Position numbers and translations under genes: made by a program
NCBI GenBank assembly: GCA_018268995.1
Contig: JAFDVL010000102.1
Span: forward strand, 21,696-85,695
Length of the DNA stretch: 64,000 bases
Origin: Acidobacteriota bacterium
GTDB taxonomy: Bacteria; Acidobacteriota; Blastocatellia; RBC074
Direction: 5' to 3'
Shown: positions 3,959 to 43,469 of the stretch, piece after piece
Position numbering within the stretch: the first letter of the stretch is position 1
Layout of the letters: each line of letters begins with the position of its first letter
Notes under the pieces: generated by a model
What the model was told of the DNA's origin: nothing
Databases searched by the model: none
The model's input: the letters and a program-made list of their open reading frames with translations, nothing else

Positions 3959-5680
3959 TCAAATATTGCCCTTCTTGCTTTCTTCCACCAACCAGTCACA
4001 AGCACGAAGCGTAATTGCCATCATGGTTAGCGTTGGGTTCTGGCAACCTTGTGAAGTGAAGGCAGCACCATCCGTGACAAAGACATTTTTGACATCCCAC
4101 AACTGATTCCATTTGTTGAGCACTGATGTCTTCTTATCCGCCCCCATCCGAGCAGTTCCGGTTTCGTGAATACAGAAGCCTGGGGGGGCTGCTTCGGTAT
4201 TTTGCGAAGTTATCTTGAATCCCGCAGCAGTAACCATCTCACTGGTCGTTTCCAGCATGTCTTTAATCATCGCGCGTTCGTTGTCGCCGTGCTGCGCTTC
4301 GATGTGCAAAACGGGGATGCCCCACTTGTCAACTTTGGTAGGATGAATCGTCACGCGATTTTCAGCACGTGGCAGCATTTCGCCCCAGCAATTCAGCGAG
4401 AAGAATAATTCTTCGGGTGCTTCGCGCACTTGTTTTTTGAACTCAGCGCCAAAGCCCTGCGTGTTCTTCGCCCGTGCATAGCTGTAACCCATTCTGACTC
4501 CGCCTTGCATGCCGTACCCGCGAATAAAATTCGGATGCTTATCAAAAACGTTACGGAACTTCGGCACATAAATTCCGTTGGCGCGCCCATCAGAATAATC
4601 GTATTCCTGCCCTTTTAGCTGGGGAACAATCCCGCCAACTCCGATGGGAAAAGCATGATCCATCAAATAACGTCCAAGCACATCGTTTGAATTCCCAAGT
4701 CCATTTGGATGCTGGCGCGGTTTTGTGTTCAGCAAAATTCGGGTTGATTCCAGAGTGGAGGCACAAAGCACAACGACTTTGGCCAGGAACTCATAATCCT
4801 GTTTCGTTCGTTGATCAATCACGCGAACGCCCTTCGCCTTGCCCGTGTTGTTATCAATCAGGATTTCGCGCACGACAGAATGCGGACGTAAGGTCATCCG
4901 TCCGGTTTTCTGCGCAGCGGGCAAAGTCGAACCCGGACTGCTGTAGTATGAGGCCGTCGTACAACCGCGATCACAATGTCCGCACCAATGGCAGGCAGCG
5001 CGCCCCTGATGCCGCTGCGTCAGGATGGCTGCGCGTCCGATGATCACCTTGCGATTTTTGAAGTTGCGCTCCACTGCTTTTTTCAGCAAATGCTCACCAC
5101 AGGTCATTTTCATCGCAGGCAAAAATTTGCTATCCGGCAGTTGCGGCAGATTTTCGTAGGAACCACTGATGCCGACAAAGTCTTCGACCGCATCGTAGTA
5201 AGGCTCCAGCTCCTTGTAGCTAATTGGCCAGGGTTCACCAAATCCATCGCGCTCTGCGGCTTTGAATTCGTAATCCGAGAGGCGATAGGATTGCCGTCCC
5301 CAAGTCAGTGAACGTCCTCCCACCTGACGCCCACGAATCCACCAGAAAGGCTTGTCATCCGGCGTTGTGTAGGGATTATCAATGTCGTCCACGAACAAAT
5401 GCGCGCCATATTCGTTTGCCGCATAACAACGGCTTTGAATTGGCTGACGCGGTGCAAATTTGGAACCTGGGCCACCCGAAGCAAGCCCGCGATATTTCAT
5501 GTCATAGGGGAAAGAGTGCTCGGTAAAATCCTTCATTGGATCAATATCGCGCCCCGCTTCCAGGACAAGAACTTTCATTCCGCGCTGGGTTAAGGCCATC
5601 GCGGCATACCCGCCGGTTGCACCAGAACCAACGACAATCGCATCGTAGACTTGTTTTGCGGTATTTCTTGAATTTTGCAT
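3959..5680 (-). CDS. GMC family FAD-dependent oxidoreductase.
   Basis: FAD-binding N-terminus [19 protein letters not shown] and length around 570 aa. The start is taken at the internal ATG ([10 protein letters not shown]...) at 5678-5680. Confidence 0.8.
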
Positions 5681-5823
5681 TGGATGCCTCTCAGTGATGG
5701 AGTTGATAAATTCGATGCGATGTAAATTATGCGCCGTGTCTGTTATTGTCAATCTGTCCGTTGCTTGAAGCACGACAAATCACAATGCTATAAAAGGTCG
5801 AACATTCATCCACGAGGTATTTT

Positions 5824-6156
5824 ATGTCTGATTTAGCAGCCAAAACCTGTGTTCCCTGCAAAGGTGGCGTGCCACCTTTGGGCAGCGCTGAAATCGCCAC
5901 GTTGCTTACCCAGCTTAATAATCAATGGGAAGTGATTGCTGAACATCACCTCCGCAAGGAATTCAAGTTACCGGATTTTCGCACTGCGCTCGCATTCACA
6001 AATCAGGTAGGCGAACTGGCAGAAGAACAAGGGCACCATCCAGATATTTATCTGGCCTGGGGCAAAGTCGAGATTACAATTTGGACACATAAAATTGACG
6101 GCCTGAACGAAAGTGATTTCATCCTTGCCGCAAAAATTGATCGCTTGCAAACATAG
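5824..6156 (+). CDS. phhB: Pterin-4a-carbinolamine dehydratase (PCD/DCoH).
   Basis: The 110-aa protein contains ...EEQGHHPDIYLAWGKVEITIWTHKIDGL..., the canonical PCD motif. Confidence 0.85.
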   Translation: MSDLAAKTCVPCKGGVPPLGSAEIATLLTQLNNQWEVIAEHHLRKEFKLPDFRTALAFTNQVGELAEEQGHHPDIYLAWGKVEITIWTHKIDGLNESDFILAAKIDRLQT

Positions 6157-6965
6157 TGCAATCCAGCCACTCCCCCAACGAAAAATTCACAGATAGATTT
6201 TTTGCGCGCCAGCCCTGGCTCGCGTACAGCATCCTTGGACTGAATGTCATTGTGTTTCTTGTGATGCTTAAGGCAAGCTTGCTACCGATTCGTTTGACCC
6301 TCATTGCTGGCAACGATCACGCCACACTGATCAATTTCGGGGCCAAATCCAATTTCTGGTTGCTACAGCAAAGACAGTGGTTCAGGTTGGTAACGCCCAT
6401 TTTCATTCACATCGGACTTTTGCATCTTGCTTCCAATTCATACGCCCTGTGGATTGTCGGCCCCATCGTCGAAAGACTCTATGGATCAGGGCGATTTGCC
6501 TTGCTGTATTTACTGACCGGAATTGCCGGAGTTGCAGGCAGCGTGTTGACCAGGGGAGATGTCCAATCCCCAGTGGCTGGGGCGTCAGGCGCGCTCTTTG
6601 GCCTGTTTGGAGCGTTGTTGATGGTGAGCTTTAAATACCGGCATGAACTTCCGACCACCTTTCGTCAGGCATTCCGAAAGGGGATACTCTTGGTTGTTGG
6701 ATTCAATTTTCTCTTCGGGTTGCTGAATAACACTGGGTGGTTGTTTGGAAATCGTTTCAGAGCGGTCATCCCTTTCATAGATTTATGGGGGCACGCCAGT
6801 GGGTTGCTTACAGGCGCGATTTTAGCGATGATCCTGCCTTATTTGCCACCAGAAAAAAATTCTCATTCCTGGCTGGACAAATTGATTTTGGTAATTTGTT
6901 TATTCATTGTGAGCTATTGTTTTTTACGCGCATATCAATTGCGCCCCTATTTCATCCAACGATAA
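6156..6965 (+). CDS. Rhomboid family intramembrane serine protease.
   Basis: Multi-TM protein with the GASGALFG serine motif and a downstream His in a TM helix (HASGLLTG). The GTG start overlaps the phhB stop (taGTG). Confidence 0.7.
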   Translation: MQSSHSPNEKFTDRFFARQPWLAYSILGLNVIVFLVMLKASLLPIRLTLIAGNDHATLINFGAKSNFWLLQQRQWFRLVTPIFIHIGLLHLASNSYALWIVGPIVERLYGSGRFALLYLLTGIAGVAGSVLTRGDVQSPVAGASGALFGLFGALLMVSFKYRHELPTTFRQAFRKGILLVVGFNFLFGLLNNTGWLFGNRFRAVIPFIDLWGHASGLLTGAILAMILPYLPPEKNSHSWLDKLILVICLFIVSYCFLRAYQLRPYFIQR

Positions 6966-6975
6966 AGGAGCATCT

Positions 6976-7866
6976 ATGGCAATCAGGAAAGTTGGCGTTC
7001 TCGGCGCGGGGCTGATGGGTTCTGGCATCGCACAGGTCGCAGCTGTGAGTGGTTATGAAGTCACCGTGCTTGAGGTCAACGAACAAGTTCTCAGCAAAGG
7101 CCTCAGCGGAATTGATAAATCACTGAGCAGGTTTGTCGAAAAAGGATCGCTCAGCGCAGAAGCCAAAGCCGCAACGATGGATCGGTTGAAAGGCACCACG
7201 AACATCCAAGACCTGGCTGATGCAGACATTATCATCGAAGCCATCATTGAGAACCTGAACATCAAACGAGAAACCTATGCCAGGCTGGATCAACTGTGCC
7301 CGGCGCGTACAATTTTCGCCTCAAATACGTCCTCTCTTTCGATCACCGAGATGATGACCGCCACCAGCCACGAACGCCAACGCCGTTTTGTGGGAATGCA
7401 CTTCTTTAATCCAGTGCCTCTGATGAAGTTGGTCGAAGTCGTTAGAACAATTGTGACGGACGAAGACGTATATGCAGAAGCAGTCGCACTCGGAACAGCG
7501 ATGGGCAAAACCGTCGTGCAAACCAGCGATAAAACGGGCTTCATCGTCAACCGATTGCTGGTGCCTTATATGCTGGATGCGATCCGGGTTTATGAAGAGG
7601 GTCTGGCATCTACCGTGGATATTGATAATGCAATGAAGCTGGGCTGTGGCTATCCGATGGGGCCGCTGACCTTGTCTGATTTTGTAGGGCTGGATACGAC
7701 ATTGTATATCTCCGAAATCATGTTCAATGAATTCAAGGAAAAACGTTTCGCTGCGCCGCCCTTATTGAAGCGAATGGTGCAAGCCGGATTATTAGGCCGC
7801 AAATCAGGACGCGGTTTTTATAATTACAGCGATCCGAAAAACCCGCAGCCAATTAAATTAGTATGA
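6976..7866 (+). CDS. hbd: 3-hydroxybutyryl-CoA / 3-hydroxyacyl-CoA dehydrogenase.
   Basis: The N-terminus KVGVLGAGLMGSGIAQV is a Rossmann fold, and the protein matches the 3HCDH family throughout (e.g., MKLVEV, GFIVNRLL). Confidence 0.85.
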   Translation: MAIRKVGVLGAGLMGSGIAQVAAVSGYEVTVLEVNEQVLSKGLSGIDKSLSRFVEKGSLSAEAKAATMDRLKGTTNIQDLADADIIIEAIIENLNIKRETYARLDQLCPARTIFASNTSSLSITEMMTATSHERQRRFVGMHFFNPVPLMKLVEVVRTIVTDEDVYAEAVALGTAMGKTVVQTSDKTGFIVNRLLVPYMLDAIRVYEEGLASTVDIDNAMKLGCGYPMGPLTLSDFVGLDTTLYISEIMFNEFKEKRFAAPPLLKRMVQAGLLGRKSGRGFYNYSDPKNPQPIKLV

Positions 7867-8840
7867 GCCTTGGCGTAATCCTTTTTAATCTCGGAGGGCC
7901 GGAAACATTAGCCGATGTGCAACCGTTTCTCTTTAATCTGTTCTCCGATCCTGAAATTATCCGTCTGCCAGCCCGTTTCATGCAGAAACCGTTGGCGTGG
8001 CTGATTTCTACCACAAGAGCCAAAAAATCTTCCGCCTATTATGCCCAAATTGGCGGCGGTTCGCCCTTGCGACGCATCACGGATGAACAGGCAAAGGCAT
8101 TGCAAGCCGAGTTAGGAAATCGCGGCATCGAGGCTAAAGTGTATGTGGGGATGCGCTATTGGCATCCCTTCACCAACGAAGCCATGCACCGCATCGAACG
8201 CGATGGCATCACGGAATTGATCGTGCTGCCGCTGTATCCTCAATATTCGGTTTCGACCACGGGTTCCAGTCTGAAAGAATTCATTGGACTACTCAAAGGA
8301 CAAACCAAATGGCGCAAGATTCGACGCCGCTACGTCACGCGCTGGTACAATCACGCGCCGTACATCAACACCCTGGCGGAGCAGATCAAAGCGGAAATTG
8401 CTCAATTCCCCGATCCCGATCCGCGCAAAGTGCATTTGCTTTTCAGTGCCCACAGCGTCCCGCAAAGTTATATTGAACGCGGCGATCCATATCTACGCCA
8501 CACGCAGGAAACGGTGCGTCTGGTTTCGGAGGCGCTTGGCAATGTCAGCCCCACCTCCTTGAGTTTTCAAAGCAAAGTTGGCCCGGTGAAATGGCTCGAA
8601 CCAGCGACAGATCAAAAGATTCGCGACCTGCGCTCATCGGGTGTCGAGCAACTGCTGATGATTCCGATCAGCTTTGTTTCGGAACATATTGAAACCTTGT
8701 ATGAACTAGACATTCTTTACAAAAAGTTGGCAGACGAGATTGGTGTGCCCCACTATCGCCGAGTGCCTGCCTTCAATACCGATGTGCGGTTTATCATGGC
8801 GCTGGCAGATTTGGTGAGCGAGAAAGTGAGCCGACAATGA
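7863..8840 (+). CDS. hemH: Ferrochelatase.
   Basis: The N-terminus GVILFNLGGPETLADVQPFLFNLFSDPEIIRLP is the ferrochelatase signature. The gene overlaps hbd by 4 nt. Confidence 0.9.
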   Translation: MSLGVILFNLGGPETLADVQPFLFNLFSDPEIIRLPARFMQKPLAWLISTTRAKKSSAYYAQIGGGSPLRRITDEQAKALQAELGNRGIEAKVYVGMRYWHPFTNEAMHRIERDGITELIVLPLYPQYSVSTTGSSLKEFIGLLKGQTKWRKIRRRYVTRWYNHAPYINTLAEQIKAEIAQFPDPDPRKVHLLFSAHSVPQSYIERGDPYLRHTQETVRLVSEALGNVSPTSLSFQSKVGPVKWLEPATDQKIRDLRSSGVEQLLMIPISFVSEHIETLYELDILYKKLADEIGVPHYRRVPAFNTDVRFIMALADLVSEKVSRQ

Positions 8841-9475
8841 AGAAATGGATTGTGATCGGATTGGTGATTGTTGTCCTGATTGGTCTTGGAGTCATTGCGA
8901 CCCCATTGTTCCTGTTTCGAGCCATGCACGTTCCCACGGGGGCAATGGCCAACACAATCATTCCGGGGGATGGGTTCTGGGCCAAACGATGGGTGGGCGA
9001 GATTAAGCGCGGAGACATTGTTATATTTGAACCCCCCTCGAATCGAAAGGTCTTATTCGTAATGCGTGTGATCGGGATGCCTGGGGAAAGCATTCAGTTT
9101 CGCGGAAAAAAAGTACTGATTGATGGTGAGGAATTGCCCGAAAGAAGGGCAATCATCGAACTCCCGACCGAGTCCGATCATGGCCTGCTGAAAGAGTCAT
9201 CGCATGAAGGCGAAGGGAAATACACGGCGCTTTACACGACAGAGAGTTGGAATGCGACTGATGGAGCAATCTATTCCGGCATGAAATTCGGAGTAGCCGC
9301 ACCGTTTCAAATCCCAAGCGGACATTATTTTGTGCTTGGTGATAGTCGTGACAACAGCATGGACAGTCGTTTTTGGGGGCCTGTTCCAGAAAATCAAATC
9401 AAGGCCAAACCGTACATCATTTATTCATCGAAAGAACCAAGTCACCTATTTGCCAAGCTTGAAATAAATCCATGA
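8837..9475 (+). CDS. lepB: Signal peptidase I.
   Basis: N-terminal TM helix plus the S26 motifs ...GDSRDNSMDSRFWGPV... (the catalytic Ser/Lys boxes were not all located). It overlaps the hemH stop. Confidence 0.85.
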   Translation: MKKWIVIGLVIVVLIGLGVIATPLFLFRAMHVPTGAMANTIIPGDGFWAKRWVGEIKRGDIVIFEPPSNRKVLFVMRVIGMPGESIQFRGKKVLIDGEELPERRAIIELPTESDHGLLKESSHEGEGKYTALYTTESWNATDGAIYSGMKFGVAAPFQIPSGHYFVLGDSRDNSMDSRFWGPVPENQIKAKPYIIYSSKEPSHLFAKLEINP

Positions 9476-31903: not shown

Positions 31904-33247
31904 ATGATGACATCGCGCCGCACATTCGGATGGTTATTCGTCCTTCTCTCATTGACCATCACCGCCCAAAACACAGCCCGCAAATACACCACTGTTGAGC
32001 GATTACAACCCGAACATTTACGCGCCGTTCATGAAGATCGCCTGCGTCATCAACAGCAACGCAAGACCATCAAAGTCATCAAAGGCTACAACGACTATCG
32101 CGCGATCATGCACGTCCATGCCGAAGATGCGACGCACACTGGCGGCACGCGTCCCGAATTACTGGCGGCGTGCAAACGAACAGGCGTCAACGTTGTGATG
32201 CTGACGAATCACGTCCGCCCACCCGTAGATTTCATCACCGATACCTGGCGTGGGTTGCGCGAAGGCGTGCTTTTCATTCCCGGTGCAGAGCATGAAGGCT
32301 TTTTGTCTTATCCGATGAAATCCATTCTGAACCGCAAAACAAACTCGCGCGAAGAATACATTCAAATGGTCAGGGAAGGCGGAGGCAACATCTTCCTTTC
32401 GCATATCGAAGAGCGTCCCGACTGGGCGACTGATCAATTGACGGGAATGGAAATTTATAACCATCACGCTGATTTCAAAGGTGAGTTGGAGTTCCTGAAA
32501 TGGCTACCGCAGACGCTTTCTGATCCTGATGGCATTGTAAAATTCAAGCAACTGCTGGCGGATTACCCGATGGAGTTTTTCGGCGCGACACAGGATTATT
32601 TGCAGGATTACATCAAGAAATGGGATGCCGACAGTCAACAGCATCGCGTCACAGGCGTCGCCGCCAATGATTGCCATCACAATCAGGTCATCACCGTCAA
32701 AGTTGCCGCACCGGATGCGATTGAATTATGGCTGACGGGAGACAAAGACCCGACCTTCAAGGTGAACGCCAAACGTGCGCCACGCATCCCCGAATTGACC
32801 AAAGACAAACAACCCGGTGACATCATCGCCGTCGTAGACATTGACCCATACGACCGCAGTCTGAGTTACGTCACCACCCACATCCTCGCCCAAAAACAGA
32901 ACGAATCCTCCATCCGCGAAGCCCTCAATCAGGCACACGCCTACGTTTCGCACGATTGGTTTTGCGATCCAACAGGATTTGCTTTTGTCGTGAACAAAGG
33001 CACGCGACAAATAGGAATTATGGGCGATGGGGTGAAGTTCAGTGCGGAAATGAAATTGTCTGTGGCTGCGCCAACAAGTGGAATGATTCGATTGTTTCGC
33101 AACGGAGCGATGGTGCAGGAATCAAAAAGCAATTCGATGGACTATCCAGTCACGGAGCCAGGAACGTATCGCGCAGAAGTTTGGTTGGAACTGGATGGCG
33201 AATGGCGTCCGTGGATTTATGCGAATCAGGTTAGGGTTTTACAATAA
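31904..33247 (+). CDS. Secreted hypothetical protein, possibly a PHP/CehA-like metal-dependent hydrolase.
   Basis: Signal peptide. The His-rich motifs IMHVHAEDATHTGG, NHV and HHADFKG resemble PHP-domain metal ligands. This assignment is weak. Confidence 0.4.
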   Translation: MMTSRRTFGWLFVLLSLTITAQNTARKYTTVERLQPEHLRAVHEDRLRHQQQRKTIKVIKGYNDYRAIMHVHAEDATHTGGTRPELLAACKRTGVNVVMLTNHVRPPVDFITDTWRGLREGVLFIPGAEHEGFLSYPMKSILNRKTNSREEYIQMVREGGGNIFLSHIEERPDWATDQLTGMEIYNHHADFKGELEFLKWLPQTLSDPDGIVKFKQLLADYPMEFFGATQDYLQDYIKKWDADSQQHRVTGVAANDCHHNQVITVKVAAPDAIELWLTGDKDPTFKVNAKRAPRIPELTKDKQPGDIIAVVDIDPYDRSLSYVTTHILAQKQNESSIREALNQAHAYVSHDWFCDPTGFAFVVNKGTRQIGIMGDGVKFSAEMKLSVAAPTSGMIRLFRNGAMVQESKSNSMDYPVTEPGTYRAEVWLELDGEWRPWIYANQVRVLQ

Positions 33248-33291
33248 TCATTTGAATATGATTGGTAATCAGCGCTCGCCGATCTATTTGA

Positions 33292-34260
33292 TTACTTGCC
33301 CTTTCTCCAACTACTATTTCGCTCTCTTGTGATTTCGTGATAATTGGCTTTCGCCTTTTCGAGAAAAGAATTATCTGCTGATATTTTCTCAACAATCCAG
33401 TCTATGAATTCCTGGCTATATTGAGCACTACTATATTGAGATTTGTAGTAGAACCGTGGAATTCCAGAAATATTATAGACAGACCTAACTGACAGAACGT
33501 CATAGTTATTTATTTTGGGCGTAATCTGCAAACGTTCATTTAGTTCTCGAACAATATCAATTTGCCTAAATGGATGGGTGTCGTCTGGGTTGAGTAAACG
33601 GTTTGCTGGTACACTTGGATCATCAACAAGACGGATGACTTTGGGCGAATTAGAAGCTGGATTAGTTTCAGTGTCAGGCACAATCATGATCCTCGCCCCA
33701 ACTGGAGCCTCAACAACCTTTCTAATTCCATCTAGCCAAGAAACTTTTATTATCTCTAATTCCCTATGAAGAAATTGTTGAAGATCATCTGAGGTTCCAG
33801 GTTCACTTTTGGCTCCGTGTCGAAAATATACTGTCCCAGTATTAAACGCGCTTCTCGCTTTGCCATCTCGGCCTTGATAGTTACCAGGGGCAATGAATAC
33901 GAGTGGTACTGAAGTACGACCGATCTCAAGTGCCGCAACCATTTGCCCCTCTTTTTCTACTGCCAGCATGTTAAATTCACTGAAATGTCGCCCTGTATAA
34001 GAGAAAATCTTGTCTGTAATTTTTGCTGGGTCGTAGCTAAGGATAGTTGACACGTCTTGCCCTGATACTTTGCCTTCATCATTCACATTAAACAATAAAA
34101 CACCCCCACCTGAATTTGCCATTGCAACTATGTCTTTGATCACTTCGCACCAATCGCCTTTCGATGAAGTGTCAAAATGCTCTTTGAAATCTATTTGTGC
34201 TGTTTCTTGAGATGAGAGCAGGGCTGATTCGATAATATTACTCATAAGAGGTCCAAACAC
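33292..34260 (-). CDS. AlbA_2 (Schlafen-like, 'divergent AAA') domain protein; putative nucleic-acid-binding or defence-associated.
   Basis: The N-terminus ESALLSSQETAQIDFKEHFD...WCEVIKDIVAMANSGGGVLLFNVNDEG matches the AlbA_2 motif (E..-E.K...D + AFAN.GGG.L..GV). The gene is conspicuously AT-rich compared with its flanks. Confidence 0.55.
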   Translation of the reverse strand: MFGPLMSNIIESALLSSQETAQIDFKEHFDTSSKGDWCEVIKDIVAMANSGGGVLLFNVNDEGKVSGQDVSTILSYDPAKITDKIFSYTGRHFSEFNMLAVEKEGQMVAALEIGRTSVPLVFIAPGNYQGRDGKARSAFNTGTVYFRHGAKSEPGTSDDLQQFLHRELEIIKVSWLDGIRKVVEAPVGARIMIVPDTETNPASNSPKVIRLVDDPSVPANRLLNPDDTHPFRQIDIVRELNERLQITPKINNYDVLSVRSVYNISGIPRFYYKSQYSSAQYSQEFIDWIVEKISADNSFLEKAKANYHEITRERNSSWRKGK

Positions 34261-34352
34261 CCATACTCGAGATTTGACTTGAAGTTTAGTTATTTCCCAC
34301 CTGTCCTCCGCTCTTACTATTTTTTCGCGTGCTAAACTTCTGCAAAGTTTTC

Positions 34353-34895
34353 TTACTCGCTGTCATACGGAGGCCGAAAGTAATACAGCTTTGTCTTTGA
34401 CGGTTGGCGGGTGTTATATGCAACATATCCACCGCCCAGTCCCTTCACAAGCAGACTAATATCGCCGCCTAGTCCCCCGTCTGTATTCCCGTCAATCGTG
34501 CGGATTGCCCCCATATTATCGGCGTTGACGATGAAGCCGACATGATTCTTGGCTACGCCTGAGGCGTTAACGGGCATGTTGTATATGTCGCCCGGTTGCG
34601 GATTGGTGACCTGTTTGTAGGCAACCGTGTACCGTTCGATGGCATTGGATTTTTTATTGGACGAACCTGTCAGGCTGAAATTGGCGGGCAGTGGTCTGAC
34701 ACCTGCTTGTGCCAGACACCAATACACAAAATCACCACACCAGCTATTGCCGGGATCGTCTACGTTGTCCGCGACATAACCGGTTTGACGTGAGGTACGG
34801 ATGTATTCAAAGACACGCGCTTTGTTTGTTTTCCAGCCTGTTTTTACCAAGGCTTCCAGAAATGCGATGTAGAGTACGTCCATTGCGGTTGGCAT
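34353..34895 (-). CDS. CHAP-domain (cysteine/histidine-dependent amidohydrolase/peptidase) protein with no signal peptide.
   Basis: CHAP motifs are NSWCGDFVYWCLAQAG (Cys) and GDIYNM...KNHVGFIV (His). ATG at 34893-34895 with a GGAGG RBS. Confidence 0.65.
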   Translation of the reverse strand: MPTAMDVLYIAFLEALVKTGWKTNKARVFEYIRTSRQTGYVADNVDDPGNSWCGDFVYWCLAQAGVRPLPANFSLTGSSNKKSNAIERYTVAYKQVTNPQPGDIYNMPVNASGVAKNHVGFIVNADNMGAIRTIDGNTDGGLGGDISLLVKGLGGGYVAYNTRQPSKTKLYYFRPPYDSE

Positions 34896-34984
34896 AATTC
34901 CTCCTGGGTGAGGGGGAGAGTAACAAGGCAAGCGCGGCAGTAACCAGACTGTAAAGCTTGTCATTACCTAGTTTTTTGCACGCA

Positions 34985-35302: not shown

Positions 35303-37714
35303 CTATTTCTTTTTCCGATTCGCTTTCCCGCGTTCCTCGCATTCACGCAGCATGTCAGTGATGCGTTGGCGTTCATCGGCGGGCAGACGCGGGCCGTAAA
35401 TCGCGAGTCCTTTGCGTAAGGCTTCAGCGGCTTTGGTGTATTCCTGATTCACATAATTTGCCTGATACAAAATTGTGTACAGTTCAAATTTGTCTCCGGC
35501 CAATTCTGCATTCGGCATGGCATCGGCTAGTTTCAATGCCGCTTCAGCATCCTTCAAGGCTCGTGCATTATCCCCTTTGAGGAAGGCGTTATCTGCGCTC
35601 AGCCAGAGCGAGAGGAACAGGCGCATCTTATCGGGTAAATTCTGGGCCAGCTGTAAGGACTGGTTGATATTCAAACGCCCCTTATCAATGTAACTCATTC
35701 GCACGGCATCCGGCAGCTTGCTTTCTTCCCAGCCTGCATACCGAGTGTAGGCCTTGCCAAGGATGTAATTCGATTCGGCCAGCGCAGCATCATCGGCATA
35801 TCGAGCACCACCGAAAATGACGTGCGAAATGGACATGAACTTCGCGGCTTTCAGCAACGAGACTTTTTTCTTGGCCACTTCATTGAAGAGTTGCAGCGCG
35901 GTTTCTGCCTGCTCGACCGCCTCTTTCCAGGGCACGGCATCTACTTCCTTGCCCAGATCAATAAACTTCGCTGCCGGGTCTTTTGACAGCAGAACGTGGG
36001 CCAGAATCATGTGCGCAGGAGGAAATTTTGGATTGATGCCGATGGCTTTGCGCAGGGCTTTTTCCGCTCCGATTTTGTCACCACGAGCAAACAAGACATC
36101 ACCAAGAACGACATACGCAAAGTCATACAGCGGGTAACGCTTGTTGATGGCGCGCAAATCGTTGATGACTTCTTCAGTGTTGCGACCCGCATTAAATTTG
36201 GCTTCGGCGAGCAGCGTCTTGGTTTGGTAATCAGTCGGACGAACTGCCAGCGCTTCACTAAAGCTCTTGATCGCATCTTCCTTCATCCCCAGCGATTGCT
36301 CTGCGCGGCCACGATAGGTAAAGGCCTGATGATAGCCGCCGCCATTGATGCGAATGGCGTCATTGAAAATGGCAATTGCTTCCCGATATTTTTGCTTATT
36401 GAATAGATCAACGCCTTCCTGCAATTTCTTCTCAGCGTCTTTGGTCGGCGTTTTTTCATCGGTCAGATAAATCTGTTTCTGCTGCGTCGTAGATTCGACA
36501 ACTGCTTCCTGATCGCTTTGTGTGAAGGCGGCATTGATCTCATAAGCAGTCGTTTGGTTAGGTTTCACTTCGGCGGGTTGCGTTTGCTGCTTTCCGCCCT
36601 TTGCCAACGTTAGATTTCGCAATCCCACCGGAACGCGAATGGTTCGCTGGCTCCCTGAAGTAAGCGTTCCGACGGCTTTGCCATCCACAGAAACCGTCAC
36701 ACCATCCACTTCTGGATTTGTGATGCGCAAGGTTCCACACGGCGAATCTGCGCTGCATTTTCCAACTTCGGGATAAGACACCACAGAAAGCGGCAATTGA
36801 TTTGCGCTCAGCATCGTCGTGGCATATTGCGGATGCTGGCGATTGTTCGTCATCTTTGGCACTTCATCACGAACGTATGTGCGCAACTCTTCAAAGGTTA
36901 CTTTGCCATCTGCATCAAAATCCGCATTGCCTTGCACGGCTTCGAGCAGACAATAAGTAAAAACACCGTGACCCAGTTCATCTTTTTCCATCGAAGATTC
37001 ATTTTGATCCGCCGCAGACAAATAGCCGATGCCGCGCGGAATGCCTTCCAGCTCTTTCAGCCATTGGTTCTGCGCACGTTGTGTCACTGCCAGTCCGCGC
37101 GAACCACTATCCAACATTACGCCCGCGCTGTGGCAGGTATCGGAAATCACCAGTCCTTTTTTGGCAGGGATGCTGTTTACGGTACGCTTGAAAGTTTCCA
37201 TCCGCATTCCAGATTTTGAAATCGTGCGTGGGTCGGTGTCATAAAGCACAAAGTATGGATATTCCTCGGTTCGTCCCGAAGCTCCTTTTTCCTGCCAGAT
37301 CACGCCGTGGGCCGCAATGAAAACCACAAAGTAATCATCCGGTTTGGATTGTTTCAGCTTCTCCAGTGAGGCTTCGATATTGGCTTTGGTGGCTTGTTCA
37401 TCCACCAGCAGAGAGATATTGGATTCAGGGAAATTGCCGCCTTCATTGCTGCGCAGGAACTTATAAATTTCCGTCGCATCTTCTGCGGCATTTTTCAGAT
37501 TGGAAATTTGATTTCCATCCACATTTTGATCGCCGAATTTATACCGAGAAACGCCAATCACCACTGCCCATAAATTCACATTGCGATTGGCTGCGGCATC
37601 CTCTTTGGTCGCTCCCACCTTGATCGTTAATCCACGATCTCGTGTTTGGGCAATGGCAAGGAAAGTGACGGCACTTAGAAGAATTGTGAGGCTAAGATAA
37701 GAGAGGCGATTCAT
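35303..37714 (-). CDS. Secreted caspase (peptidase C14) domain protein with a C-terminal array of TPR repeats.
   Basis: Signal peptide MNRLSYLSLTILLSAVTFLAIAQ. The caspase His/Cys dyad is FIAAHGV ... ISDTCHSAGV. There are multiple TPR units in the C-terminal 450 aa. Confidence 0.8.
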   Translation of the reverse strand: MNRLSYLSLTILLSAVTFLAIAQTRDRGLTIKVGATKEDAAANRNVNLWAVVIGVSRYKFGDQNVDGNQISNLKNAAEDATEIYKFLRSNEGGNFPESNISLLVDEQATKANIEASLEKLKQSKPDDYFVVFIAAHGVIWQEKGASGRTEEYPYFVLYDTDPRTISKSGMRMETFKRTVNSIPAKKGLVISDTCHSAGVMLDSGSRGLAVTQRAQNQWLKELEGIPRGIGYLSAADQNESSMEKDELGHGVFTYCLLEAVQGNADFDADGKVTFEELRTYVRDEVPKMTNNRQHPQYATTMLSANQLPLSVVSYPEVGKCSADSPCGTLRITNPEVDGVTVSVDGKAVGTLTSGSQRTIRVPVGLRNLTLAKGGKQQTQPAEVKPNQTTAYEINAAFTQSDQEAVVESTTQQKQIYLTDEKTPTKDAEKKLQEGVDLFNKQKYREAIAIFNDAIRINGGGYHQAFTYRGRAEQSLGMKEDAIKSFSEALAVRPTDYQTKTLLAEAKFNAGRNTEEVINDLRAINKRYPLYDFAYVVLGDVLFARGDKIGAEKALRKAIGINPKFPPAHMILAHVLLSKDPAAKFIDLGKEVDAVPWKEAVEQAETALQLFNEVAKKKVSLLKAAKFMSISHVIFGGARYADDAALAESNYILGKAYTRYAGWEESKLPDAVRMSYIDKGRLNINQSLQLAQNLPDKMRLFLSLWLSADNAFLKGDNARALKDAEAALKLADAMPNAELAGDKFELYTILYQANYVNQEYTKAAEALRKGLAIYGPRLPADERQRITDMLRECEERGKANRKKK

Positions 37715-37869
37715 AAACGATCCTTTGCGTATTTTCAGGAAAGTCTGAGAAAGTTCTGATAAAGCGGGGAGAGACTTGCAAGTTCCGGGAACGTCAGATG
37801 CGCATTGCGAATCGTGGCACGTTCCTGAACCTTACAAGTCCTCCCAGTCCGTTCCTAGAGAAAAATTTG

Positions 37870-38931
37870 CTATGGCAAAATCACCGTGCCACCCGTCCGC
37901 GTATCAACTTGCGGCGTCTGGCGTACGGGATCGCGTGTTGCAAATTTATAAGCGCCAAGTCCGACCGCCGCGCCAATCACACCGAAGATTGGAAGAGCGT
38001 TTTGCGGTGCCCAGAAACCGACCTGCGCGCTGATGACATTGATTGTGCCTTCCCACACGGCATCGGTTCCCTCAACTTGCACTTTGATCTTGGTCGAAGT
38101 CCCCGAAGTCTCGCTGGCCGTGAAATTCACCTGAGCAACCCCTTGTGAATTTGTCGTGGCCCGTAAGCTTGCCTGCCCGGCCAGAGTACCAGCATTGCCT
38201 GAATTTGCGCCGCCGCCACCTAACAGGAATAAGACAGGTGCATCCGGGACAGGACGATCATTTTCATCCGTCACGCGAACCTGCAAGTTGCGCGTCGAAC
38301 GAGCACGAATTTCCGTATTCGTGCCCAGATTCAACGGCTTGATCAGATATTTACGCGGCCCGGCCTGCTGTTGTGCCGCATTCGCCGCAGCGATTTCTTT
38401 GTCGTACAGGCCAAGTGCAAAATTGCCAACTGACATTACCTGCCCGCTGATGGGCGTAATGATCGGTTGACCATCCCGAATGCCAGCACGAAACTGCGCG
38501 CCTTTGGTGGTCACGAATCCGGCACCTGCAACCTCTAATCTGGCTGCTGATTCAGGCTTCAGGGAAACACTGACTTCCCCGTTGACCAATGAGGCAAGCA
38601 TCGCGTGCGAAACAGTATCTGCCGCCAGTTTGACAGTGGCCCCACCGCGCAACGTGATGTTGCCGATGGTTGCAAGCATTACCTGAGCACTGGCCCCAGA
38701 TGCAGCTTGCACCGTGTCACCGTTCCAAAGCAATCCTTGTCGCCCGGCTTCGTTTCCATTGATTTCAATCGCTTCCATTGACTCAACCGACCCGATTGGC
38801 GCTGCTGTCAGCCGTGTGGCGGAACGGTCATTGGAGCGATCATTTACGCGCGATGCCCCTGCCAGTGAAACGACTGGCATGAGTGCAAGCGCAAAGGCTA
38901 GTAGAAAAATCGTGAACTTTAATTTTCGCAT
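37870..38931 (-). CDS. Secreted hypothetical protein with a C-terminal TM anchor; possibly FecR-like.
   Basis: Signal peptide MRKLKFTIFLLAFALALMPVVSLAGA. The C-terminal helix is IFGVIGAAVGLGAYKF. The stop is 2 nt from the start of the giant downstream gene. Confidence 0.45.
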   Translation of the reverse strand: MRKLKFTIFLLAFALALMPVVSLAGASRVNDRSNDRSATRLTAAPIGSVESMEAIEINGNEAGRQGLLWNGDTVQAASGASAQVMLATIGNITLRGGATVKLAADTVSHAMLASLVNGEVSVSLKPESAARLEVAGAGFVTTKGAQFRAGIRDGQPIITPISGQVMSVGNFALGLYDKEIAAANAAQQQAGPRKYLIKPLNLGTNTEIRARSTRNLQVRVTDENDRPVPDAPVLFLLGGGGANSGNAGTLAGQASLRATTNSQGVAQVNFTASETSGTSTKIKVQVEGTDAVWEGTINVISAQVGFWAPQNALPIFGVIGAAVGLGAYKFATRDPVRQTPQVDTRTGGTVILP

Positions 38932-38933
38932 GG

Positions 38934-41900
38934 TTAGTTCTCCCTCCTGGCACTCGCCTCGCCTTTTGATTCAAGTTTGCGCGGTGCCAGTTGTATAACG
39001 TCGGAAAATAGAGCTTCTGTTCTGAATAATGTGGTTGCCGAATTGAAAGCAGGGATGAATGGACTGGACGAAGCTGTGACAGTCGTCGCGTCGCCATCGG
39101 TCACTGCCACACGGACATAGGTAATATCAGGTCGTCCGCTCGCTCCACTGAAATCTTGTTGCAGTGTGAAGGGCTGCCCAGGCAAGAGTGTGGATAACGA
39201 ATTGAGTACCGATGTCAGATCAACCTCAATCAATCGGCTGGCAGGCTGACGAAATGTATCAAAGAACTGATACGTGATTTTGGTCGCGTTTTTGTTTGCA
39301 TCATAAAGAGAAACCTTGACGCGGAAATCATCACGCACCGTCGTCATTTCAACCAATGGCGTCGTCGCTGGATTGCCGATCACGTTTCCATCTCGCGGAA
39401 CAATTTGAATCGCAGGGGAAACGCGCGCGGAGATATTGGCCGCCGCCGTCCCCGGATCACCAGCCGCTTCGGGGCGACCAGGAGACACCCCTCCGGTGAT
39501 AAAGCTGAAGCGGATTTGCGAATCAAACAACGCAGGCAACACCTGTGTTGCAAAGACGCCCTGATCGCGATTGGCAAATGTCCCGGCAAACGTTGGCAGC
39601 GGCGGATTGAACAAAATGCGGAACCGAAGCTGCTCGCCACTAAGCAAAGTCCGATTGATTGAAATCGGCTGTGCCGCAGTACGATCTGGATTCACGGTTG
39701 GATTCAGTGGAACCTCTGCCCCCGAAGCCGGAACCAGGCGCAATGAGAAATAGCGACTGTCATCCACACCACTTAAGTTCGCCGCGTTGGTCACACGAAC
39801 AAACAACGCCGTCGTCAAATTCATCGGCAGACAGCCTGTATTCGTGAGTGTGAACGTCCCAGAAGGTGGCGTCGCATTGCTGCCCGCCACGATGGGGCCA
39901 AGTTGCAGTGCCGTGCCTCCTGCATCATAAGCAACTGTACCAATAGCCGTTCCAGCCAAACCGGTGCTGGTGATCGTGGAGGAATTATTCGCCGAGCTGA
40001 CATCAAAAGTTTGACTGGAAACCGTTGCCTCACTCGTCAAAGTCGTATTTTGCGCAAGGCAAGCGAGGGTTCCAGTGATCGTCAAAACGGCGGTTCCCGG
40101 AGCCAGATTTGAAGTCGAAGCAAAGAATGGATTCCCATCCCGTCCACAAGACCAGCCAGCCGGAGCCGTACACGTAGCCCCTAACAACTGAACAGGTGGC
40201 CGGATGACCGCAGATACAAAACCAGCGGTACTTGGGCCATTGTTGGTCACGTTAATGGTGTACGTCACCGCAGCACCACTGGCGACTGGATTGGGTGCCA
40301 CACTTTGCGTAATCGCCAGATTCGCTGAAGCATTGACCGTTGCGTTCGCATTGGCAGTATTGTTTGTCGTAATCGTGTCCTGCTCATTGCTGCTGACGGA
40401 TGCGGTATTCGTGGCAGTGACCGATTGTGGCGGCGTCCCTGTGGTCGGAATCGTAGGAGCAATGACCACGCTGACAGTCGCGTTGGCACTGGGAACAATC
40501 GTCCCTAAATTACAATTGATTGGCCCGGTTCCGGTGCAACTACCGGCTAATGGCGTGACCGAGACGACTGTAAACTGGCCATTCGGAATCGTCACGTTAT
40601 CCGTTAATGCCACGCCTGTTGCATCATTCGGCCCGTTGTTGGCAACCGTGATTGTGTAGGTCAGATTGTTTCCGACAAAGACGGGATTTGGTGCTGCTGT
40701 GACCGTCACGCCCAAATCGGCAACTGCATTTTGGACGGCCAGACAGGCAGAAAACTCTGACGTATTTCCAGAGCTATCGGTCGCCGTTGCGGTCACAACA
40801 CGCCCGGCAGTCACTGGTGTCGTGACCACCAGGGAAATGTTTCCGACCCCGCTGGCATTGGTTGTGACGTTGGTCCGCCCAACAAATACTTCCCCCTCAC
40901 CATTCCCGGTCGTATCGCAACTGGCATTGCTGAAAACTTCAACGATGTAGGTTGAGTTTGCCGCACTGTTCAATGTCCCAACAATGGTTGTTCCGGTCGT
41001 CCGCGTCAAAGCAGACGTGAGCACCGGATAGTTTTGGAGATTATTCGCACCTGTATCCGTGTCATTCGTGTCATTCGCGGTGACTCCGGCTGCCCCTAAA
41101 TCAATTCCTAATTGTCCATTGTTGTAGATGGAATTATTCAGAATCGAATTATTGACCGTACTGGAGGAAATAAAAGGAGCAGGAAGATAAACACCCTGCG
41201 TGGCGTTATTCGCAATAATGTTCCCCGCACCTGGTGCTGTTCCGCCAATCGTTGTATTCGCGACCCCATCAAGCTGAATTCCCGCCGCATTAAAAGATTC
41301 AGAATTTCCATTCCCCAGCGCACCTGTGCCAGCAGCATCTACGCCAATGTAATTCGATTGAATCACATTACCATCAGCAGCTTCGGGGGTGGCCTCCGTC
41401 CGAGTGGGAACACTTCCGCTGATGCTAATACCACTGCCGAAGTTTCCTGAGATCACATTCCGTGCTCCGGCTGTCGTGCTGCCAATCACATTGTTGGCTG
41501 CAAGAAACAGGTTCACGCCCGTGCCATTTCCGTTGGCGCTGGTTCCAGCACTATTTGTACCAATGTAATTGCCTAATATCCGGTTGCCTGAGCTTGTTTC
41601 AAGAAATAGGAAGATTCCAGAAAAACTATTGCCGGAAATAATATTGCGAGCGGCTGCCGTTGTCCCTCCAATAATGTTATTCGGGGAGCGATCAATTCTG
41701 ATCCCCTCGCCTCCGTTATTCACCAGCGTATTTCCTTCGATGACATTGCTATTTCCGAGGTTGATGTTTATCGCTCCGGCAAAGGTAAACCCGGAAATTG
41801 TCAGACCCCGTATTGTATTAGAGTTCCCCGTCAGGGTGAGGGCATAAGATCCACCAGTAAAATTTGCCCCCTGATTAATCACGATGCTTTGCGAGGCAGG

Positions 41901-43469
41901 TGCGCCTCCCTGCGGAGTGCCATCAATGATGATCGGATTGGTAATATCCGGGAGCGGCGAGTTCAGTAAAATTGTTTGGGTTCCGCCGCCGATATTGAAG
42001 GTAATGGTATCTGAACCCGCCGTTGCATTCGCTTCCTGGATGGCAGCCCGCAGCGTGCAAATAGGGCCACCAGCGCGCGAACTGTCACAAATACCATCGC
42101 CAGGAATCGCATCAGGCAAATCGCCATTTGAGTTCACACTAAACGTTGCTTCCGGCACGGCATTGATCACCATCGGAGCAGCAGCATTTTTACGCAGCAA
42201 AACCAGCCCATCCAAAGCGCTGGCAGTTGTTCGCAGTGCTAATGCCGCCACCAATTCTCCCTGCCCTTCTAAAGATGCCGAGCTGATGTCTTTGCTGGCA
42301 TTATTCGCGAGGACTCGCAATTGATTCGATTGAAGCGTGACTAAGTCATCCACCTTGCTGCCAGAAATTCGAGCACGCATTAAATGCATTGCGCCACTAT
42401 TTTCCTGCCGGGCGGATCGGGCATTTTCAGTTGGCTTGAGCACCTGCGTTATTTGCCACTGCTCAGCCGCGCGGGAACGAACACTTTGCCTGCTGTTGCC
42501 TGTTACCATCTGACTTACGACTGAAATTGAGCCATCCTGCGCAAGCAATGCGATCTGATTTATGTAGACTTGTGCATCATCAACAAAGTGGCCGATTGCT
42601 AGCGAATCGGCTTTCGCCGAAAGCGCTTTGCGCATGATCGTTGGGGTCTGTCTTCCACCTGCAATGACGACCAGCTCGGTGCCAGCAGCAACAGCGAGAT
42701 CAGAAAAGGCATCGCGGGTTAAGTGGGCGAATGCCAGCGAAGTCGCAGGCTGTGACAGGTTATAGGTTTGAGGCTGTGCTTTCCACGCTCCATCGGCAGC
42801 GCTGAACAACTGAATGAATGCACCATCTGCTGTTTGTTCGGCAACGGCGAAATCTGCCAGTCCATCCACGCGATTGAATTCACCACTCCCCAGCGCCGTG
42901 ATCGCCCCTTTTACCTCCGTCACCACTGGCTCGGCGAAGCCACCTTTGCCATCGCCAGCCAGGAAATATAAGACATTACTATTGCGTGCAGCTGCAATCA
43001 CATCAAAATGGCCATCCGCATCAAAATCGCCTGTTTCAAGAAAATCTGGAATTGAAGGAAGAAGGAGATTACTGCCCGCAGAAGAAAAGATTGCGCTTCT
43101 GGATTCCGTGTCGAAACGGGGATAGAGAGCGTTGGCATTTCCGCGATAGGTGGTGATTATTCCGACGCCACCATTTTCATATCCACCGATCAAATCTGTC
43201 ATCCCATCTTCGTTGAAGTCAGCGGTGGCGAGGGCCAGCGGACGAAGACTGTTTACGTCCTGACCTGCCGACTCCAGCAATTGCGCATTGGACAATCGGA
43301 GTGATTTGCTGCTTGATTGAATTTTGATCGTTTTGGTTTCTGGTCTGGGTAAAACAGTTGTCGCGGGCTTCCTGATGAACGTGGCCAATCCACCAGCGAC
43401 AATCGCAATTGAAGTTAAAGTTAATAGGACTATTTTTGTTGTGAGTTTATGTAACAAACGAACAGACAT
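38934..43469 (-). CDS. Giant (1511 aa) cell-surface protein with FG-GAP/VCBS-like repeats, right-handed parallel β-helix repeats and DUF11 ('conserved repeat domain') units.
   Basis: N-terminal TM anchor. FG-GAP-like DFNEDGMTDLIGG and GDFDADGHFDVIAA. A long Gly/Asn-rich β-helix region (NNIIGGTTAAARNIISGN..., the 'GxxxNxI' periodicity). DUF11-like LTYTITVANNGPNDATGV and VTYTINVTNNGPSTAG. Confidence 0.7.
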   Translation of the reverse strand: MSVRLLHKLTTKIVLLTLTSIAIVAGGLATFIRKPATTVLPRPETKTIKIQSSSKSLRLSNAQLLESAGQDVNSLRPLALATADFNEDGMTDLIGGYENGGVGIITTYRGNANALYPRFDTESRSAIFSSAGSNLLLPSIPDFLETGDFDADGHFDVIAAARNSNVLYFLAGDGKGGFAEPVVTEVKGAITALGSGEFNRVDGLADFAVAEQTADGAFIQLFSAADGAWKAQPQTYNLSQPATSLAFAHLTRDAFSDLAVAAGTELVVIAGGRQTPTIMRKALSAKADSLAIGHFVDDAQVYINQIALLAQDGSISVVSQMVTGNSRQSVRSRAAEQWQITQVLKPTENARSARQENSGAMHLMRARISGSKVDDLVTLQSNQLRVLANNASKDISSASLEGQGELVAALALRTTASALDGLVLLRKNAAAPMVINAVPEATFSVNSNGDLPDAIPGDGICDSSRAGGPICTLRAAIQEANATAGSDTITFNIGGGTQTILLNSPLPDITNPIIIDGTPQGGAPASQSIVINQGANFTGGSYALTLTGNSNTIRGLTISGFTFAGAININLGNSNVIEGNTLVNNGGEGIRIDRSPNNIIGGTTAAARNIISGNSFSGIFLFLETSSGNRILGNYIGTNSAGTSANGNGTGVNLFLAANNVIGSTTAGARNVISGNFGSGISISGSVPTRTEATPEAADGNVIQSNYIGVDAAGTGALGNGNSESFNAAGIQLDGVANTTIGGTAPGAGNIIANNATQGVYLPAPFISSSTVNNSILNNSIYNNGQLGIDLGAAGVTANDTNDTDTGANNLQNYPVLTSALTRTTGTTIVGTLNSAANSTYIVEVFSNASCDTTGNGEGEVFVGRTNVTTNASGVGNISLVVTTPVTAGRVVTATATDSSGNTSEFSACLAVQNAVADLGVTVTAAPNPVFVGNNLTYTITVANNGPNDATGVALTDNVTIPNGQFTVVSVTPLAGSCTGTGPINCNLGTIVPSANATVSVVIAPTIPTTGTPPQSVTATNTASVSSNEQDTITTNNTANANATVNASANLAITQSVAPNPVASGAAVTYTINVTNNGPSTAGFVSAVIRPPVQLLGATCTAPAGWSCGRDGNPFFASTSNLAPGTAVLTITGTLACLAQNTTLTSEATVSSQTFDVSSANNSSTITSTGLAGTAIGTVAYDAGGTALQLGPIVAGSNATPPSGTFTLTNTGCLPMNLTTALFVRVTNAANLSGVDDSRYFSLRLVPASGAEVPLNPTVNPDRTAAQPISINRTLLSGEQLRFRILFNPPLPTFAGTFANRDQGVFATQVLPALFDSQIRFSFITGGVSPGRPEAAGDPGTAAANISARVSPAIQIVPRDGNVIGNPATTPLVEMTTVRDDFRVKVSLYDANKNATKITYQFFDTFRQPASRLIEVDLTSVLNSLSTLLPGQPFTLQQDFSGASGRPDITYVRVAVTDGDATTVTASSSPFIPAFNSATTLFRTEALFSDVIQLAPRKLESKGEASARREN

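Follow-up and report, generated by a model that had tools for sequence, protein, structure and literature searches.

The 64-kb window analysed here, i.e., the whole stretch from position 21,696 to 85,695 of contig JAFDVL010000102.1 of an Acidobacteriota bacterium of the Blastocatellia (GCA_018268995.1), contains a variable low-GC segment, hereafter the islet, at positions 33236-34343, which carries the minus-strand gene of a prokaryotic Schlafen (pSlfn) protein. In the program-made list of open reading frames (ORFs) this gene extends from 33292 to 34260, starts with GTG and encodes 322 amino acids; an ATG five codons inside, at 34245, is the start of the identical NCBI protein P0001 (317 amino acids, from an Acidobacteria metagenome-assembled genome, MAG). 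The gene is given here as 33292-34245 (317 codons and the stop) with the upstream GTG as an alternative, and residues are numbered on the 317-amino-acid protein unless the 322-amino-acid ORF is named. On its left lies the anchor of the locus, a convergent plus-strand gene for a CehA/McbA-like metallohydrolase of 446 amino acids (31907-33247; NCBIfam NF038032, E 3.9e-9, below the cut-off), and on its right a co-oriented CHAP-domain gene, upstream of the cargo and annotated with 180 amino acids (34353-34895, minus strand; Pfam CHAP, E 1.4e-10). The preliminary description of this DNA had called the gene visibly AT-rich relative to both flanks and had quoted two strings as examples, which was borne out in full: the strings are present at about 33371-33390 and 33471-33486, and among 52 non-overlapping ORFs of at least 90 amino acids called across the window the gene has the lowest GC content (0.409, as compared to a mean of 0.498 with a standard deviation of 0.030; z -3.0) and the lowest GC content at third codon positions (GC3; 0.335 as compared to 0.527; z -4.2), so that the proposed comparison of GC and codon usage gave a strong deviation from the rest of the window. 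GC contents at first and second codon positions were ordinary among these ORFs, and the shift in composition therefore lies at synonymous sites. The islet as a whole (1108 bp) has a GC content of 0.406, and in 1-kb sliding windows the GC minimum across the 64 kb falls at 33214-34213 (0.404 versus 0.499, z -4.6). The next-lowest kilobase reaches 0.441 (62950-63949, z -2.8) and holds an ORF of 166 amino acids without Pfam match (62974-63474, minus strand).

The edges of the islet are defined by the loss of DNA homology to L008, the closest relative among 22 related loci that were collected from GTDB species genomes with the CehA-like protein as bait (identity 52-82% for the 19 that are of Blastocatellia or Acidobacteriota type, 39-41% for the three of Verrucomicrobiota type). 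L008 retains CehA (82% amino acid identity), CHAP (93%) and also the PMT-like gene, and blastn aligned it to the window at 31931-33235 and 34344-34918 only, with no homology between; on the left the homology fades over the last few CehA codons, and on the right it returns exactly at the CHAP stop codon. The breaks at 33235 and 34344 nearly coincide with the limits of 33250 and 34350 that had been drawn from the letters alone. The upstream spacer of 107 bp between the CHAP stop codon and the Schlafen start codon (34246-34352, minus strand) is likewise non-homologous to L008 and, since it lies within the variable segment, presumably carries the expression signals of the pSlfn gene itself; promoter and terminator scans did not exceed shuffled sequences, and the minus strand of the spacer yielded neither a sigma-70-like nor a terminator-like site. 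The equivalent slot of L008 measures 1017 bp, has a GC content of 0.43-0.48 as compared to 0.54-0.57 in its flanks, and codes for a product unrelated to the pSlfn, namely an Mrr_N and Mrr_cat protein which matches PADLOC models of type IV methyl-directed restriction. This L008 gene (9391-10297, minus strand) is broken into two overlapping ORFs of 221 and 101 amino acids, due either to decay of the cargo by frameshift or to a long-read sequencing error.

In other relatives, the gene directly after CehA encodes a DUF4145 protein (L009; 241 amino acids, GC 0.42), a HEPN-like protein with an RxxxxH motif and no Pfam match (L015; 157 amino acids, GC 0.40), a reverse transcriptase-TIR fusion cut by the contig end (L017; 289 amino acids, GC 0.41; PADLOC RT-TIR_XII, the retron type XII model, E 7e-61) or a TIR protein (L019; 294 amino acids, GC 0.39; PDC-S66 and ThsB models). 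The cargo genes of the relatives have GC contents of 0.39-0.45, and every one of them is convergent with CehA. Of the informative loci, eight have a CehA orthologue with an identity of 71% or more, and in six of these a different low-GC defence-type gene occupies the slot; no such cargo follows CehA in the other two (L012, L013) or in the more distant L014 and L034, where a DUF900 hydrolase gene comes directly after it. An empty CehA-CHAP site was not found in a metagenome scan, which returned only more distant loci (at most 70% identity), none of them with CHAP. Since relatives hold other genes between or after the same anchors, the slot forms a variable hotspot of small size, with the pSlfn gene as one of its alternative cargos; the possibility, raised at the outset, that the gene might belong to the core conserved in relatives does not hold, the slot between the retained flanks of L008 being filled by the unrelated Mrr gene. 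L012 (11107-11754) and L016 (10081-10704) have further low-GC genes (0.38) some kb downstream of their CehA orthologues, one without Pfam match and the other with repeats that by eye look to be of Sel1 type, the latter next to a gene for a Uma2 endonuclease (PDC-S03 models) and to an ORF that is RHS-like by eye, and the variable zone may extend past the first gene after CehA. In the window itself, the minus-strand genes at 35303-43469, just past CHAP, encode a caspase of the EACC1-associated type with TPR (803 amino acids), a Big_1 protein and an FG-GAP/DUF11 protein (1511 amino acids); synteny with L008 stops at 34918, so this block is not common to L008 either, and its caspase-TPR gene is a possible candidate for a second gene of conflict-system type.

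The pSlfn protein consists of an N-terminal Schlafen/AlbA_2 nuclease domain (residues 1-170; 33736-34245, minus strand), a linker predicted to be disordered (residues 171 to about 204-215; 33634-33735, minus strand) and a C-terminal module (residues 205-317; 33295-33633, minus strand). The N-terminal assignment, made earlier from the translation, was confirmed by Pfam (PF04326, SLFN_AlbA_2; residues 19-154 of the 322-amino-acid ORF, E 1.3e-12, 48.7 bits versus a cut-off of 25.3). The catalytic motif Ex4(E/D)xK is present as E14-TAQI-D19-F-K21 (codons at 34183-34206, minus strand), and profile alignment sets E14, D19 and K21 on the sequence SESASIEFK of SLFN13. In the family alignment A1, which has 32 members and from which the conservation counts are taken, E14, an acidic D or E at position 19, and K21 are each found in 31 of 31 aligned homologues, and F20 is present in every sequence covering that position; the other conserved residues of this domain are W32, E34, K37, D38, N44, G48 and the block YFRHGAKSEP at 140-149. 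By count along the profile alignment, D56 corresponds to the catalytic D248 of SLFN13, and position 56 or 57 is acidic in 30 of the 32 members. A sequence profile search of the PDB returned SLFN13 (5yd0, E 1.4e-5), SLFN11, SLFN14, SLFN5 and SLFN12 and, weakly, CbCash (9ylu, E 0.067). The AlphaFold2 model built on A1 (mean predicted local distance difference test score, pLDDT, 86.6) has two confident domains, the N-terminal one above 90, and between them the linker with a pLDDT of 47-59, which is also the least conserved stretch of the protein (mean pairwise identity 0.42). With this model, Foldseek matched only AlbA_2-fold proteins of the PDB at E < 1e-3, namely DIP2311 (3lmm, 4e-7), the SAMD9 tRNase (9o0d, 2.7e-5) and SLFN13 (5yd0, 3.8e-5), followed by SLFN12, SLFN5, SLFN11 and SLFN14. 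On every computational criterion, the protein is a member of the pSlfn family.

Homologues in a large protein database amounted to 1542 clusters (90% identity) at E <= 0.001, i.e., to a large pSlfn group of more than 1500 clusters of proteins of about 312 amino acids across distant phyla. The best 120 of them are nearly all 300-330 amino acids long with the same two domains at 45-66% identity, and stem from Acidobacteriota, Desulfosporosinus, Sphaerotilaceae, Atribacterota and many metagenomes; Pfam already allows this architecture to be recognised, and some homologues were named 'Putative DNA-binding domain/EC042_2821-lke REase' by JGI. P0003, the nearest homologue encoded by another MAG of the Blastocatellia (58% identity), is found at a locus different from this one. 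Eight homologue contexts were examined (L004 to L007 and L030 to L033), a small sample in which six have a defence-type neighbour within 10 kb. DarT and Macro genes lie immediately upstream in L031, with an IS200 transposase downstream, and a SIR2 gene lies immediately upstream in L032; L033 has an MmeI_N fragment and HEPN_Swt1 with DUF5343, L004 a small HEPN gene, and L006 a RelA_SpoT gene, a DUF4365-TPR gene, serine recombinases and a HATPase_c_3 gene. In L005 (Sphaerotilaceae; 4194-9346), IS21 (transposase and IstB) lies between an AAA_15/OLD-TOPRIM gene and a UvrD-like gene, a pair which, going by its domains, appears to be Gabija-like and disrupted by the insertion sequence (IS). L007 has IS200 and many small ORFs and no defence-type gene. 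The homologue in L030 (P0005, 10001-10993) is without the N-terminal 40 or so residues and has an internal duplication of about 45 residues over the PGNYQGRDGK...YFRHGAKS block, and probably represents either a degenerate gene copy or an error of assembly. A conserved partner gene was ruled out, as no neighbour is common to the eight contexts and CHAP adjoins the gene in this lineage only, and the pSlfn gene would therefore work alone, as a single-gene system. The GC content of homologues lies about 10 points under that of their surroundings in L004 (0.40 versus 0.50), L005 (0.55 versus 0.67) and L007 (0.54 versus 0.64), and that of the Desulfosporosinus homologue equals that of its low-GC host, a pattern which fits repeated transfer. 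An origin from a phage or plasmid was rejected: tblastn gave no phage match and one partial plasmid match, restricted to the N-domain at 32%. Scans of IMG/VR contigs detected no pSlfn relatives.

The C-terminal part of the protein had been described as unassigned, which was not wholly correct: Pfam matches it with PF18740, the EC042_2821 family called 'REase-like' (REase, restriction endonuclease), at residues 224-300 of the 322-amino-acid ORF, over profile positions 1-93 of 97 and by a small margin (27.6 bits versus a cut-off of 24.9), and this name is probably misleading. NCBIfam gave no match to the pSlfn protein. PADLOC, which had been proposed as a check, recognised only the C-terminal third, as the candidate system PDC-S19 (residues 221-313 versus model positions of about 226-329, E 1.4e-10), because the C-terminal module is common to the DUF3644-HEPN proteins of PDC-S19; DUF3644 corresponds to the HEPN RNases that Anantharaman et al. 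(2013; PMC3710099) grouped as the EC042_2821 family. When the C-terminal alignment was used as a profile in an exhaustive search, only 654 representatives were obtained at E <= 0.001, most of them either of the pSlfn architecture or fragments thereof. A word-indexed search for other partners of the module likewise gave mostly fragments of the same family, and it was the exhaustive search together with Pfam and PADLOC from which the DUF3644-HEPN partners emerged. Among the representatives scanned, P0243, P0278 and P0304 have an N-terminal DUF3644 domain in place of the Schlafen domain, and the C-terminal profile matches the DUF3644-HEPN proteins at E values of about 1e-29 to 1e-31. P0243 and P0278 contain the motif RN[RK]IEH and align to PDC-S19 with an E value of 1e-100 over positions 1-250 of the model; in both, the final 100 residues have 38-39% identity with the stretch 204-302 of the pSlfn protein. 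Four short proteins of about 105-115 amino acids (P0122, P0132, P0140 and P0143), encoded on long contigs (95-190 kb), comprise the module alone and are either split genes or free-standing copies of it. As judged from these sequence matches, one module is paired with two evolutionarily unrelated RNase domains, Schlafen and DUF3644-HEPN. This is the strongest argument that the module would be a common sensing or regulatory part and the N-domains interchangeable effectors; by analogy, the C-terminal module is most likely a sensor or regulatory part and not a working restriction nuclease.

We propose as the probable explanation that the islet arose by horizontal acquisition of an immune cargo of one gene, which sits in the variable CehA-CHAP slot and encodes a pSlfn with an RNase effector and a C-terminal sensor. 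The preliminary description had likewise suggested a horizontally acquired defence or abortive-infection gene, and this suggestion is supported by the Schlafen motif, the fold match to tRNases, the defence neighbours of homologues and the pSlfn literature (PMC13056530, PMC13462974). An immune gene directed at plasmids or mobile DNA and not at phages, like the HEPN-based 'Ishtar' that clears plasmid RP4, would be compatible with this explanation and not exclusive of it, and we consider it unlikely: despite the fact that the C-terminal module is common to DUF3644-HEPN proteins and that plasmids are lost through the action of a single-gene DUF3644-HEPN system whose C-terminal domain is uncharacterised (bioRxiv 10.64898/2026.07.06.735840), the Ishtar C-terminus, with 5-7 strands and three helices, is set apart by its description from the two-strand, four-helix model obtained here, and all tested prokaryotic Schlafens act against phages or under CRISPR control (PMC13056530, PMC13462974, PMC13552941).

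In a separate model of residues 205-317 (pLDDT 87.7), the C-terminal module is composed of two helices, a two-stranded hairpin, a further helix and a long helix. Foldseek searches with it found no restriction enzyme in the PDB or among the viral models of BFVD; the weak PDB list is headed by winged-helix and MerR/excisionase-type DNA binders, i.e., RacA (template modelling score, TM, 0.65 on the target), MerR-family proteins, Xis, BldC, GntR and PadR. In BFVD a single match was significant, the unnamed protein A0A4D5ZKU1 of 142 amino acids (E 2.2e-6, TM 0.70, 26% identity), followed by many helix-turn-helix (HTH), excisionase and PrtN proteins with weak scores. The modelled fold hints at possible nucleic-acid binding. 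The conserved residues of the module are T223, H224, P225, R227, N236, R254, Y267, Y276, S277, F280, W283, F294 and F295, and no acidic/lysine pattern of the PD-(D/E)xK type is conserved in the C-terminal half (25-32 homologues). The identity of the module as an REase is therefore not supported and was set aside as improbable, given the lack both of conserved acidic residues and of an REase fold match in these searches. The same observations bear on a reversal of roles, in which the EC042_2821 domain would be an REase-fold DNase effector and AlbA_2 would merely bind nucleic acid, and which we regard as very unlikely. Such a reversal would be in line with the above-cut-off match to a Pfam family called 'REase-like', with the description of EC042_2821_CTD as an REase fold by Anantharaman et al. 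(2013; PMC3710099), with the absence of the catalytic residues from several mammalian Schlafens (PMC13462974) and with the NCBI name of the protein, 'putative DNA binding domain-containing protein', which fits AlbA_2 as a binder. However, the invariant or near-invariant C-terminal residues are T, H, P, R, N, R, Y, S, F and W, without any PD-(D/E)xK pattern, the helix-helix-hairpin-helix-helix topology finds weak HTH, excisionase and MerR-like counterparts and no REase, and the N-domain retains the full catalytic motif in all members. If the C-terminal module is taken as the sensor of the proposed immune protein, its fold may have a free-standing viral copy in A0A4D5ZKU1, a distant look-alike for which searches of IMG/VR and INPHARED gave no relatives by sequence. 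It is conceivable, and put forward here only tentatively, that the EC042_2821 module is an unrecognised winged-helix-type invader sensor on two unrelated RNases and that A0A4D5ZKU1 is a possible blocking decoy; if true, the winged-helix sensor family would offer a clean natural experiment in which one sensor controls two different RNases.

It is hardly probable that the gene codes for a non-immune nucleic-acid-binding or regulatory protein made of AlbA_2 and a winged-helix-like domain, AT-rich and poorly conserved by chance, for even though 30.4% of pSlfn genes are without a defence neighbour (PMC13056530), as is L030, and the weak HTH-like fold matches of the C-terminus would also suit a DNA-binding regulator, the slot is otherwise filled by Mrr, RT-TIR, TIR and DUF4145 genes, the homologues are scattered over phyla at about 45-50% identity in unrelated loci beside defence genes and insertion sequences, and a mere binding domain would not need the catalytic motif that is strictly kept.

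Following the explanation of the islet as immune cargo, we propose, by analogy with characterised Schlafens, that the N-terminal AlbA_2 domain acts as the effector, a Mg2+-dependent endoribonuclease with an E-x4-D-x-K triad, whose substrate would most likely be tRNA by homology with RorSlfn5, CbCash, SLFN11 and SAMD9. The C-terminal module would hold the nuclease inactive until a cue of infection or of an invader is met, possibly a nucleic acid because of the weak winged-helix resemblance of the module; activation would then lead to translation arrest and, in turn, to a lower phage yield. The protein likely oligomerises, since Cash and RorSlfn5 do so. Several observations speak against this proposal. 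The architecture of Schlafen plus EC042_2821 module lies outside the seven pSlfns that have been tested (PMC13056530), and PADLOC has no model of the whole protein, the C-terminal third alone being matched. The PDB fold matches of the C-terminal module were non-significant (Foldseek, best E 0.68), and its sensing role is argued from analogy and from the absence of catalytic residues. The putative third catalytic acid, D56, is replaced by N in 15 of 32 members, with the acid moved by one position. The L030 context shows no defence neighbour. Finally, no integrase, tRNA gene or flanking repeat was found that would account for the exchange of cargo: there are no tRNA genes in the 64-kb window, no recombinase adjoins the pSlfn gene according to the ORF list and the Pfam scan, and the repeats at the islet edges are short and at chance level, including a 10-nt inverted repeat (33173/34334) expected by chance within 1.4 kb. 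Taken all together, the finding stands and agrees with what is currently known, extending rather than overturning it. The locus represents a defence hotspot of small size and clear limits in soil Acidobacteriota, and the turnover of immune genes in this phylum is poorly documented; the shared module hints at a swappable sensor for which the Pfam label of restriction endonuclease is probably misleading. What goes beyond expectation is the exchange of Schlafen and HEPN effectors on one module, a module that is likely mislabelled 'REase', and the compactness of this Blastocatellia defence hotspot.

The demonstration that bacterial Schlafens are immune tRNases dates only from 2025-2026, and few of the 'sensor' domains fused to them have been explored. 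In the work of Perez Taboada et al. (Nat Microbiol 2026; PMC13056530), the pSlfns, catalogued as pSlfn1-55 and including RorSlfn5 and EcoSlfn7, emerge as tRNases that act against phages and have sensors fused to them, the active nucleases among them being defined by Ex4(E/D)xK (PMC13056530), and a Schlafen of E. lactis protects against phage (PMC13552941). Like them, the window protein combines PF04326 with Ex4(E/D)xK and a fused accessory domain in a single polypeptide, and its family resides among defence genes and is patchy across phyla; unlike the tested pSlfns, it has the EC042_2821 module as accessory domain and not an Ig-like, DUF262 or HisKinase domain. The combination of PF04326 with EC042_2821 is probably among the 55 compositions catalogued in PMC13056530. 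With PDC-S19 the window protein shares a homologous C-terminus of about 100 residues (38-39% identity, profile E about 1e-30), a similar size (about 330-380 amino acids in PDC-S19), the single-gene organisation and an RNase-type N-terminal effector, whereas this effector is a Schlafen and not a DUF3644 HEPN domain with Rx4-6H, and there is no match to the PDC-S19 model over the full length. A DUF3644-HEPN domain followed by an unknown C-terminus is also found in the anti-plasmid 'Ishtar2' (2026 preprint, bioRxiv 10.64898/2026.07.06.735840). As for the EC042_2821 'REase' family, the window protein matches its hidden Markov model and lacks the catalytic residues. In CbCash (PDB 9ylu), the triad E17/D22/K24 holds Mg2+ and the scissile phosphate (PMC13462974), and the window protein has the same N-terminal Schlafen domain and E-x4-D-x-K at near-equal residue numbers (E14/D19/K21). 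By contrast, Cash senses cyclic tetra-adenylate (cA4) via a Csx15 Rossmann-like domain and belongs to type III CRISPR loci, whereas the window locus is without CRISPR genes and the window protein without a cyclic-nucleotide sensor domain. The nuclease fold and the catalytic motif are also shared with mammalian SLFN11, SLFN13 and SLFN14 and with the SAMD9 tRNase domain, and the protein is single-lobed like SAMD9 (9o0d, target-normalised TM 0.45-0.47); unlike these proteins, to which its identity is 13-20%, the window protein is far smaller and has no second lobe, helicase or STAND modules.

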